Position numbers and translations under genes: made by a program | Source: a virus | Taxonomy: Duplodnaviria; Caudoviricetes | Strand: one strand, 5' to 3' | Virus record (IMG/VR): IMGVR_UViG_3300037067_011215 | Coordinates: 3,554 to 67,553 of that record | Length of the DNA stretch: 64,000 nucleotides | Shown: positions 1,409 to 28,210 of the stretch, in pieces | Layout: the number at the start of each line of letters is the position of its first letter | Numbering within the stretch: the first letter of the stretch is position 1 | The notes under the pieces: model-generated | Database searches by the model: none | Told to the model about the DNA's origin: nothing | The model's input: only the letters and a program-made list of their open reading frames with translations

Positions 1409-3958
1409 TCATTTCCAATCCTCCAATGTTTTTTGATTTTTTTCTTTCAATTCTATTTTTTCTTGTATTTCTTTATTTCCTCCCAATACTTCGAATATTC
1501 GTAGTAATGGTGGAAGTAGTTGTTTGTTAATGTAATATTCTGTATCTATAGGTATTCCATATTTTTTTATGTAATTTGGATCTTCTGCCCTATTCACAAA
1601 CAAATCTTTCTTTCCTTTTCGTCCTCCGCTTTTTCCTTTTATTATGATATATTGTATTCTATCTCCGATTGATGGTGTTACATCTCCTCGATTTTTCATT
1701 CTTTCTACTAATTGAATATGTGGTTGTTTGTTTTTATACGAATTTATTCCTTTTGTGTATCTTCTTGATAACATCAAGTCTTCTAGCATTTCCGTATCTG
1801 TTGATATATTGAAATTTTTTATTTTTTGTACTTTTTCGTTTGCTAAACTAATTGCTTCATCTACTTTTCCTTCTTTAAGTATCAAATCTAATATCGTTCT
1901 TAGTGTAGATGATGTCAGGTTACACCAATCTCTTCGTACTGTCTCTATTCCTCTTATTTTTAGTTTATCTGTATAACCATCTTTGTCTTCGTCAAATATC
2001 CACATTGCATATCGTTTTTTCGCTACTAATATTCCTCTTCTTGCAAATGTTTCATATAGCAATTCCATTGGTTTTGGTAGATTTTTTGTTACTTCTTTTG
2101 AAATTGTGTTTCCTATTTCTTTTGCTTTTTCAATTGATAATTTTTTATTTGATTTTACTGATATAAATACCGAATCCGTATCCCCATAACACACATGTAA
2201 TTCTTTTTCTTCTATATTCATTGAATTTATTACATTTTGTGTTTTTAAGATATTTTCTCTTCCGAATGATGTTACAGCATTTGCTATTCTTAGGTCATAA
2301 AGTCTTGCTCGTTGGTATCCTGAATATCCATAGAAGCTATTTAGTAATATTTTTATAGCATACTGTTTTGCATCCAATAGATCTCTTTCAGATCCACTAG
2401 ATTTTTTCATTTTCTTCTTGATTTCTATTCTTTGATTCAATAATTCCTCAAGGATCTCTGGTACTATTCCTTTTTTTATCGTAGCTGGTACAAATTTTCC
2501 ATTTCCGAATGGTGCTTTTATGATTTCTTCGCTATTTGATATATTTTCTTTGTTTAATACGGTCGAGTAACATAAGTTATATGCCATCATCAACGTTGGA
2601 TATAGAGATTTGTAATCTAGTATTATCACATCTTCTACCAATCCTTTTTCTGGTACTAAAACAGCTCCTCCTTTTAATTCTGATGCATTCTCGAATCTTT
2701 CATCGGCTAATTCTGAATCTGGTTTAGAAGAAACTACTCTATCGTATTTTCTGAATCTTCTCATTAGCAGATTTTCAATCATTCCTGATTGCCCGCCATT
2801 TACTATGTCTTGTAGTAATGACCCACTCGCTTTAGACATTTCCACGTATTTTTCCATTAGTTTAAGTGTTGTTAGTAGTTCTAGTGCAATTATTGCATCT
2901 CTTCTTGAGTATGCTATGAATCTTCTTAAGTCTTCATCTGATCCATTTAACCATATCTGTTCCATTTCTTTTGGTTCTACATCCAATTTTTCTATTCTTA
3001 GAAATTTTTTTGCTACGTTTCTTAATGTATAGCTTTTTAATTTGTATTTATCCTCATTCGAGTTTCTTAAAATTGGTAGTAGATCTACTACTATTCTTCC
3101 TGCTATCATCACTGATGTTACAATCCCGATTTTTTTTGTGTATAAATTTGATCCATCTTTTCCTATGTTCGAGTCTACTAATAATTTTTGCATTCTCTTT
3201 TCTAAATAAGGCAAATCGAATTCATTTGAGTTGTATCCTACTACAATATCTGGATCGTATTCTTTTATTACTTCTACCATAGCACTCAATAGTTCTTCTT
3301 CTGATTCCAATGAAATTGTGTTGTTTTCATTGAATTGCAATGATTTCCCCACCAACACTAAATCATTCGATTCCATGAATTTCTGATTAAATGCAAAGCT
3401 TATTAAAATAACTGGTGATTTTTCCGGTGTTGGCATTTGTCCGTGATCTGGTAAACATTCTATATCTATGCTCATCATTTTCAATTGTGCGTTTTCTACT
3501 TTTTCTATTGATTTTATATCTGATTCATTTATTTCTTCTTTATTTGATAATTCTGCCCATTTCATTCCACCCAAATTTTTGTCTATTAGAAATCGGTTTT
3601 TGAATAAAATATCTGTTTCATATACTTCTTTGATTCCAACTAGATTTTTCACTCTTTCTCTTAGAGTTCTAACATCTTTTGGGTCGATTGCTTCGATTTT
3701 TAGCATTTTCTTTTTTGTTGTCTGAAATCCTATTGGTTCATATTTCATTATTTCCGTTACGTTTACTCCCATGTTTCCTATTTCTCTTTTTGTTTCATCG
3801 ATATCTGCATCTTCTTCTAAGTTTGCATAAAAATATGGTTTAAATTTGTTTATTCTTATTAAGTGATTCTGCCCATTTTCTTCTTTTCCAAATAATTGTA
3901 TTACTGGATTTCTTTCATTGTCATATTTGTAATTTGCATCTAGTATTTGTATTTTCAT
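1409..3958 (-). CDS. polB: archaeal family B DNA polymerase (RNA-primed type, exonuclease + polymerase, C-terminal PIP box)
   Basis: ExoI SIDIEC, ExoII YNSNEFDLPYL, ExoIII YSRRD; DYKSLYPTLM, KILLNSFYGY, YGDTDS; C-terminal QKTLEDW matches the PCNA-interacting consensus QxxLxxW. Confidence 0.97.
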   Translation of the reverse strand: MKIQILDANYKYDNERNPVIQLFGKEENGQNHLIRINKFKPYFYANLEEDADIDETKREIGNMGVNVTEIMKYEPIGFQTTKKKMLKIEAIDPKDVRTLRERVKNLVGIKEVYETDILFKNRFLIDKNLGGMKWAELSNKEEINESDIKSIEKVENAQLKMMSIDIECLPDHGQMPTPEKSPVILISFAFNQKFMESNDLVLVGKSLQFNENNTISLESEEELLSAMVEVIKEYDPDIVVGYNSNEFDLPYLEKRMQKLLVDSNIGKDGSNLYTKKIGIVTSVMIAGRIVVDLLPILRNSNEDKYKLKSYTLRNVAKKFLRIEKLDVEPKEMEQIWLNGSDEDLRRFIAYSRRDAIIALELLTTLKLMEKYVEMSKASGSLLQDIVNGGQSGMIENLLMRRFRKYDRVVSSKPDSELADERFENASELKGGAVLVPEKGLVEDVIILDYKSLYPTLMMAYNLCYSTVLNKENISNSEEIIKAPFGNGKFVPATIKKGIVPEILEELLNQRIEIKKKMKKSSGSERDLLDAKQYAIKILLNSFYGYSGYQRARLYDLRIANAVTSFGRENILKTQNVINSMNIEEKELHVCYGDTDSVFISVKSNKKLSIEKAKEIGNTISKEVTKNLPKPMELLYETFARRGILVAKKRYAMWIFDEDKDGYTDKLKIRGIETVRRDWCNLTSSTLRTILDLILKEGKVDEAISLANEKVQKIKNFNISTDTEMLEDLMLSRRYTKGINSYKNKQPHIQLVERMKNRGDVTPSIGDRIQYIIIKGKSGGRKGKKDLFVNRAEDPNYIKKYGIPIDTEYYINKQLLPPLLRIFEVLGGNKEIQEKIELKEKNQKTLEDWK

Positions 3959-28210: not shown

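Follow-up and report, generated by a model that had tools for sequence, protein, structure and literature searches.

The DNA analysed here (the window) is a stretch of 64,000 nucleotides at positions 3554-67553 of the 67,553-bp IMG/VR virus record IMGVR_UViG_3300037067_011215, that is, 64 of 67.5 kb. It probably belongs to a tailless virus of an archaeon, with a capsid made from a double jelly-roll (DJR) protein. It encodes a 405-amino-acid (aa) candidate for the major capsid protein (MCP) and a family B DNA polymerase (PolB) of the archaeal cellular type. Given a tailless archaeal DJR virus, the most credible host, and in our judgement the probable one, is a member of the Methanotrichaceae (Methanothrix). 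More tentatively, the virus may represent an undescribed lineage of high rank (family to order or above) which has expanded to 40-84 kb, has captured a cellular-type PolB, primases and helicases, and packages its genome without a FtsK/HerA or terminase motor. A preliminary description of this DNA had proposed a possibly undescribed lineage of large, methanogen-infecting jelly-roll viruses; the DJR fold, the Methanothrix-like PolB and the lack of any GenBank homologue of the MCP all agree with that proposal, and none of the observations that the description had listed as able to overturn it was made.

The candidate MCP is encoded as follows.

52189-53406, plus strand: candidate MCP of 405 aa with a DJR fold (AlphaFold2 model and structure search)

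Homologues of this protein are 32-71% identical to it and several are found on contigs of 51-80 kb. The AlphaFold2 model, made from a 19-sequence alignment, had a predicted local distance difference test (pLDDT) score of 84.5 and a predicted template modelling score (pTM) of 0.85. VIA-align searches of the structure were informative; for both this protein and a second capsid candidate (331 aa, described below), Foldseek against PDB and BFVD gave only generic beta-sandwich matches of low TM. The structures matched by the 405-aa model were:

P3 of PRD1/PR772: Z 11.2-11.6 (about 255 residues, root mean square deviation ~4.2)
GH172/DUF2961 (cellular enzymes): Z 10.6-10.8
MCP of Sulfolobus turreted icosahedral virus (STIV): Z 9.9-10.4
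PBCV-1: Z 8.9-9.5
P2 of PM2: Z 8.4
Faustovirus: Z 8.2-8.7
FLiP: Z 8.0

Leads from the ESM Atlas were concordant (P2, P3 and capsids of nucleocytoplasmic large DNA viruses). The chain of the 405-aa protein forms two vertical jelly rolls, the arrangement that characterizes the DJR MCPs of Varidnaviria (Bamfordvirae), and the profile of its family had no match among PDB sequences. The preliminary description had pointed to two jelly-roll capsid candidates. The first is indeed a DJR protein, closest to PRD1 P3 and STIV MCP, while the second is not canonical.

As GH172 enzymes lie within 1 Z unit of PRD1 P3, the fold of the 405-aa protein alone does not prove a capsid role. An alternative is that the protein is an enzyme akin to GH172, or an accessory protein of the surface, and that the true capsid protein (of an archaea-specific morphotype) is encoded among the unannotated open reading frames (ORFs) or that there is no particle at all (a plasmid). 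The close structural scores are in keeping with such an explanation, as are the fact that more than half of the ORFs belong to no family, the failure to find a packaging ATPase and the lack of a demonstrated penton. We nevertheless consider it unlikely. When 44 diverse members of the MCP family were compared with Pfam, none reached E ≤ 0.01 with the hidden Markov models (HMMs) of GH172/DUF2961 (PF11175 and related) or of any further family. The loci examined place the MCP gene on contigs of viral type, where it heads a conserved morphogenesis operon together with genes for jelly-roll, beta-helix and fibre-like proteins; this context, too, sets it apart from the cellular DJR enzymes. Moreover, the contig containing the window (G000) and two related assemblies described below (G001 and G002) are all listed as virus records in IMG/VR, with CheckV completeness of 98, 100 and 100%, respectively. 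It is from fold and context together that the 405-aa protein is inferred to be a capsid protein.

The genes around that for the candidate MCP are consistent with a virion operon.

53409-53837, plus strand: 142-aa protein directly 3' of the MCP gene, kept in relatives (synteny)
54140-56610, minus strand: cassette for proteins of 307, 336 and 179 aa (weak Glyco_transf_4 match, 336-aa protein only)
58149-59144, plus strand: protein of 331 aa in which helices join two jelly-roll/beta-sandwich domains (model pLDDT 87.5)
59147-60964, plus strand: two small proteins (126 and 149 aa) and a 325-aa protein

The two domains of the 331-aa protein matched known structures singly (GH172 N-domain, 8.9; SPV1 MCP, 8.2; STIV turret, 6.9; PRD1 P5, 6.6), and profile-profile comparison revealed no relationship between it and the 405-aa protein. 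It is a candidate vertex protein (penton or turret base). In a distant relative of 84 kb (L011), whose MCP is 25% identical, the gene order is MCP, a 334-aa homologue of the two-jelly-roll protein, a 137-aa protein and a 321-aa Pel9A-like beta-helix protein. This order indicates a conserved partnership between the two-jelly-roll protein and the MCP. The cassette at 54140-56610, which separates the MCP gene from the remainder of the virion operon, is absent at this place in the 84-kb relative; thus it has been inserted into what is otherwise one morphogenesis operon. The 325-aa protein is putatively spike- or depolymerase-like, since its homologue in that relative is the Pel9A-like beta-helix protein.

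The candidate MCP belongs to a sizeable family. Searched with the family profile, 1.84 billion representatives yielded 132 clusters at 50% identity, of which 77 had E ≤ 1e-10 and 26 had E ≤ 1e-30. Some members are carried on short fragments, others on contigs of 41, 58-61 and 84 kb. No homologue was present among 50,697 GenBank genomes of phages and archaeal viruses, and literature searches found no published description of the lineage, of any DJR virus of Methanothrix or of any other Methanothrix virus. Two short MCP contigs (P0045 and P0048) have been deposited in metagenome-assembled genomes (MAGs) labelled Minisyncoccales and Bacilli; these are probably mis-binned viral fragments.

The genome is ~68 kb, its map is circular or circularly permuted, and the contig is nearly complete. 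G000 has no direct or inverted terminal repeats. When compared by BLASTN with G001 (IMGVR_UViG_3300027419_000030, 69,061 bp), which carries a 66-bp direct terminal repeat, it was collinear from end to end (65-76% identity), the break point being elsewhere. The two ends of G000 map ~0.8 kb apart in G001, within the last ORF, so that the gap corresponds to part of one gene. The offset of the MCP gene differs yet again in the third assembly (G002, 69,399 bp). Given this collinearity and permutation, and CheckV completeness of 98-100%, the absence of a gene from G000 applies to an essentially complete genome.

No gene typical of head-tailed viruses was recognized. All ORFs of at least ~100 aa, including the two that lie outside the window, were compared with Pfam, and the large structural, replication and surface-protein ORFs with PHROGs. 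Neither scan revealed a family of terminase, portal, HK97 capsid, protease, tail tube, sheath or tape-measure proteins, and when G000, G001 and G002 were searched in six frames with HMMs, there was no candidate at E ≤ 1 for Terminase_6N, Phage_capsid, Pox_A32 or FtsK_SpoIIIE. When G000 and G001 were scanned for Walker A motifs, the primase-helicase proved to have a classical motif and the superfamily 2 (SF2) helicase a GAGKT variant; neither G000 nor the complete G001 yielded a P-loop protein apart from these two helicases. As judged from sequence, the genome is therefore without the motor of Duplodnaviria and without the A32-type motor of most DJR viruses. That no terminase, portal, HK97 capsid or tail gene could be recognized, as noted in the preliminary description, thus holds, and it extends to the remaining 3.5 kb of the contig and to the complete 69-kb relative, in neither of which was a terminase, portal, HK97 or A32/FtsK gene detected. 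A packaging ATPase was likewise not recognized in the MCP neighbourhoods inspected in other members of the family. No histone-like protein was found among the small, highly basic ORFs inspected as possible DNA-condensing proteins.

These results bear on whether the virus could be a member of the Caudoviricetes whose HK97 capsid, portal and terminase have diverged too far for HMMs. A size of 68 kb and PolB-based replication do resemble those of tailed viruses of haloarchaea and of ANME-1 (anaerobic methanotrophic) archaea (PMC9894754). Several ORFs of 300-600 aa also remain unfolded, and the ESM Atlas model of one of them (590 aa; pTM 0.32) is too poor to judge a portal fold. Against this, there is no P-loop protein in G000 or G001 other than the two helicases. 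No large terminase subunit is known that lacks a Walker A motif. In addition, Terminase_6N and Phage_capsid had no match in six frames, the Pfam and PHROGs scans of the larger ORFs had none either, and a bona fide DJR protein is present. A head-tailed virus is accordingly very improbable, and a tailless DJR virus is the better description. In such a virus the lack of a FtsK/HerA- or terminase-type ATPase means that encapsidation would depend on a host factor, on an unrecognized protein or on assembly of the shell around the DNA.

Within the DJR viruses this lineage is a variation on a known theme, unusual in its large genome and in having no packaging motor. PRD1 has a linear 15-kb genome carrying terminal proteins; its PolB is protein-primed and its packaging ATPase is P9. 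Compared with PRD1 and PR772 (Tectiviridae, Tectiliviricetes), the present virus has a circularly permuted genome of ~68 kb, a cellular-type PolB, no ATPase that could be found and no sequence similarity. The genomes of prokaryotic viruses with DJR MCPs have been reported as ~7-18 kb and most encode a FtsK/HerA ATPase, the exceptions being the 'Odin' group and the single-stranded DNA phage FLiP (Yutin et al. 2018, PMC5894146). A genome of ~68 kb is about four to nine times this range. All members of the STIV/TKV4-MVV group encode a packaging ATPase of the B204 type (PMC5894146); relative to the STIV (Turriviridae) group, the genome described here is ~4 times the upper end of the size range, lacks the ATPase and has a set of polymerase, helicase and primase genes. 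It resembles the Odin group and FLiP in combining a DJR MCP with no detectable packaging ATPase, and the Odin group in having a PD-(D/E)XK nuclease; PolB and glycosyltransferase genes occur occasionally in Odin genomes. However, these genomes are small (7-18 kb), and the comparison is by description, not by MCP sequence.

The DJR viruses of ANME-1 archaea offer a further comparison. Chaacviridae have genomes of 10-11 kb and a protein-primed PolB, and ANME-1 viruses of 80 kb are exclusively head-tailed (PMC9894754). The virus described here is like the Coyopavirales of ANME-1 (Chaacviridae and Ixchelviridae; PMC9894754) in its presumed lack of a tail, in the methane-metabolizing host proposed for it and in having a DJR MCP recognizable only by structure prediction, but differs from Chaacviridae in its ~68-kb genome, cellular-type PolB and archaeo-eukaryotic primases (AEPs). 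Its capsid fold is thus that of small DJR viruses, while its size and PolB-based replication recall head-tailed viruses of ANME-1, except that its PolB is of cellular type. The reported sizes of 7-18 kb (PMC5894146) and 10-11 kb (PMC9894754) bear out the earlier remark that known tailless icosahedral viruses of archaea are generally smaller.

The DJR viruses described from bacteria and archaea in these papers have genomes of 7-18 kb and simple replication genes. Members of 40-84 kb that carry a replicative polymerase of cellular type would extend what is known of this realm in prokaryotes, and they are relevant to how a small DJR virus can become a large one. If the interpretation is correct, it would provide a prokaryotic parallel to the growth of genomes from small DJR viruses to giant viruses. 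A complete 69-kb genome without a packaging ATPase also raises the question of how large double-stranded DNA enters a jelly-roll shell; again, if the interpretation is correct, large double-stranded DNA viruses would have a new packaging mechanism.

The polymerase gene is the main source of information about the host.

1409-3958, minus strand: PolB of archaeal cellular (RNA-primed) type (Pfam, structure alignment, motifs and homologues)

PolB matches the Pfam family DNA_pol_B at E 7e-104 and its exonuclease domain at 3e-35. Residues 5-831 align with residues 2-755 of Thermococcales PolB structures (E 1e-107), covering the archaeal N-terminal domain, and the Exo I (DIE), A (SLYPT) and C (YGDTDS) motifs are intact. 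PolB is collinear with cellular PolB and so is not of the protein-primed type with TPR1 and TPR2, in line with the absence of inverted terminal repeats and the circularly permuted map. The protein ends in QKTLEDWK, which contains the sequence QKTLEDW resembling a PCNA-interacting protein (PIP) motif. The preliminary description, which had reported a PolB with a PIP box, an archaeal N-terminal domain and no protein-primed insertions, was correct in these respects. Related viral PolBs end in KQKTLEDW(K) and those of Methanothrix in KQKSLFDF, with QK[ST]L..[FW] in common. This shared C-terminus of clamp-binding type, Qxx[L]xx[F/W], suggests use of the host PCNA. The PolB of one related virus (P0070, 1253 aa) holds an intein.

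The closest homologues of PolB are four or five viral enzymes from contigs of 67-70 kb, after which come cellular polymerases with 52-55% identity over 98-100% of the length, some of them on contigs of 0.4-3 Mb. Every named close cellular homologue is from Methanothrix, Methanosaeta or Methanotrichaceae, and the identity to any deposited viral PolB is ≤ 27%. In a quick maximum-likelihood tree, whose outgroups are very distant, the viral PolBs formed one clade (SH-aLRT 99) adjoining the Methanotrichaceae clade. It is this sister relationship to the Methanothrix/Methanotrichaceae enzyme that leads to a methanogen as the presumed host. Comparison of PolB with species genomes (low-complexity patterns) yielded only distant matches of 29-37% identity and no host information.

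A different low-G+C archaeon might be the host if the polymerase gene had been exchanged with Methanotrichaceae long ago. The G+C content of the viral genome (~36% genome-wide) is far below that of Methanothrix, the viral PolB clade lies outside and not within the sampled Methanotrichaceae, and short MCP contigs have been binned into unrelated MAGs, all of which fits such an exchange. Nevertheless, all the named close PolB homologues are from Methanotrichaceae and the C-terminal clamp-binding motif is nearly identical to that of Methanothrix. The habitats are also appropriate: the exact DNA was present in one landfill and one groundwater metagenome (no RNA dataset was listed among the sequencing runs that contain it), and Methanothrix is common in landfill and groundwater. 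Methanothrix also ranks among the chief sources of biogenic methane. Another archaeal host is thus somewhat unlikely, and Methanothrix or a close relative is preferred.

Several points weigh against the interpretation as a tailless DJR virus of Methanotrichaceae. The 405-aa protein is tied in fold with GH172 enzymes; the penton is unproven; the second capsid candidate (331 aa) is not a canonical DJR; and the A32-like ATPase (FtsK/HerA) by which Varidnaviria (Bamfordvirae) are also defined is missing. The host was deduced from one gene, that for PolB, and the G+C content of Methanothrix is much higher than the ~36% of the virus.

Genes for other replication proteins are located in the same part of the window as that for PolB, on the same strand.

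5659-8445, minus strand: XPB-like SF2 helicase in two ORFs (ResIII/Helicase_C matches)
11582-12352, minus strand: NrS-1-like AEP primase-polymerase with helix-bundle domain (PHROG DNA primase, E 1e-61; Pfam NrS1-1_pol-like_HBD, E 7e-17)
25244-28210, minus strand: 988-aa protein with Prim-Pol, CHC2 zinc ribbon and P-loop (Walker A at residue 354)
28311-28979, minus strand: Cas4-like PD-(D/E)XK exonuclease (PHROG exonuclease, E 4e-11; Cas4 weak)

The helicase appears as two ORFs around an intein: that at 7279-8445 encodes the N-terminal part and the N-region of the intein, and that at 5659-6600 encodes the C-region of the intein and Helicase_C. Between the two halves, in another frame, is an ORF (6438-7319) for a LAGLIDADG endonuclease with a C2H2 zinc finger. 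The 988-aa Prim-Pol/P-loop protein is read as a primase-helicase. The preliminary description had seen in these genes a full replisome. The PolB, SF2 helicase, AEP-helicase and exonuclease stand, but the proposed Rad52-like and single-stranded DNA-binding (SSB) proteins (probably 9106-9669 and 9711-11156) had no significant match in Pfam, PHROG, NCBIfam or PDB. Furthermore, no PCNA, clamp loader (RFC), ligase, Fen1 or RNase H was detected in the genome. As the clamp, its loader, ligase, Fen1 and RNase H are lacking and Rad52 and SSB unconfirmed, 'full' is too strong a word; the set is a core of polymerase, primase, helicase and nuclease which must lean on host factors.

From these components a replication and assembly scheme can be proposed. 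DNA would be opened and RNA-primed by the AEP primases and the primase-helicase, assisted by the XPB-like helicase, and copied by the cellular-type PolB, which would be tethered to host PCNA through its C-terminal PIP motif. The shell would be built of trimers (presumed from the fold) of the vertical DJR MCP encoded at 52189-53406, and the co-operonic 331-aa two-jelly-roll protein and small downstream proteins would supply the vertex parts. Appendages for host recognition could be formed by the beta-helix, BNR-propeller, C1q-headed fibre and PEGA proteins.

The proteins most likely to be exposed on the virion or cell surface are encoded near the ends and in the middle of the window.

1-1074, plus strand: last 357 aa of a fibre-like protein of 965 aa, whose gene starts 1.8 kb upstream of the window
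29467-39662, minus strand: four acidic surface-type proteins of 249, 519, 911 and 1713 aa, the first two with PEGA domains
39793-41172, plus strand: staphylococcal-nuclease-like protein with PEGA domain and N-terminal hydrophobic segment (simple hydropathy scan), kept in the 84-kb relative
61977-64000, plus strand: first 674 aa of a protein of ~938 aa that has Asp-box/BNR-like repeats, runs off the contig end and is not an ATPase

The 965-aa protein is a putative receptor-binding fibre with a trimeric head of BclA-C/C1q (TNF-like) type; it matches 'virion structural protein' in PHROG (E 2e-13) and Pfam BclA_C (E 1.5e-7, which does not reach the curated threshold), with a weak match to C1q. The region is variable, as a single 965-aa protein in G000 (220-4627 of locus L008) corresponds to ORFs of 585 and 332 aa in G001 (10422-14607), and is likely to be a host-range variable region. 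The four acidic proteins are putative virion-surface proteins or adhesins. In the 84-kb relative (1-2511), an ORF of 3590 aa takes the place of those for the 1713- and 911-aa proteins, and giant surface-type proteins seem to be a trait of the family. The nuclease-PEGA protein is read, from its N-terminal segment, as secreted or membrane-anchored. The ~938-aa protein has a conserved string, GK..VGK[ST], which was considered as a P-loop and rejected, as this string has no preceding hydrophobic strand and lies in the Asp-box/BNR-like repeat region.

An operon upstream of the MCP gene may contribute further virion proteins.

44301-49881, plus strand: six proteins without known families (406, 144, 317, 590, 201 and 162 aa)

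The 406- and 590-aa proteins are of low complexity, Ser-rich and, by eye, helical. Scaffold or minor-capsid roles are possible for the proteins of this operon. The 590-aa protein and the 201-aa protein next to it (46926-49393, plus strand) have similar C-terminal beta domains that share ...VGN..W.GW... and look like paralogues.

Beside the PolB gene is a small group of genes (3955-5662, minus strand) with a possible metabolic function.

3955-4344, minus strand: small 4Fe-4S/radical-SAM protein, activase-like (Pfam Fer4_12, E 4e-17; Radical_SAM, E 1e-9)

The same region also encodes a weakly thymidylate-synthase-like protein (E 0.0025), and a Thymidylat_synt gene is clearly present in the 84-kb relative. 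The pairing of radical-SAM and thymidylate-synthase-like proteins suggests a unit for nucleotide metabolism or base modification.

G+C skew was negative in nearly every 2-kb bin irrespective of the coding strand, and the cumulative skew fell monotonically with no turning point; thus no signature of a bidirectional origin was visible across the window (1-64000). The most G+C-rich bins, 52001-54000 (46%) and 58001-60000 (43%), are those with the capsid-related genes, compared with ~36% genome-wide.

Finally, a 286-aa pentapeptide-repeat protein (19591-20451, minus strand; Pfam E 4e-50) is encoded amid small accessory genes. Some pentapeptide-repeat proteins mimic DNA and, by analogy, this one may act against host defence or a DNA-binding enzyme.

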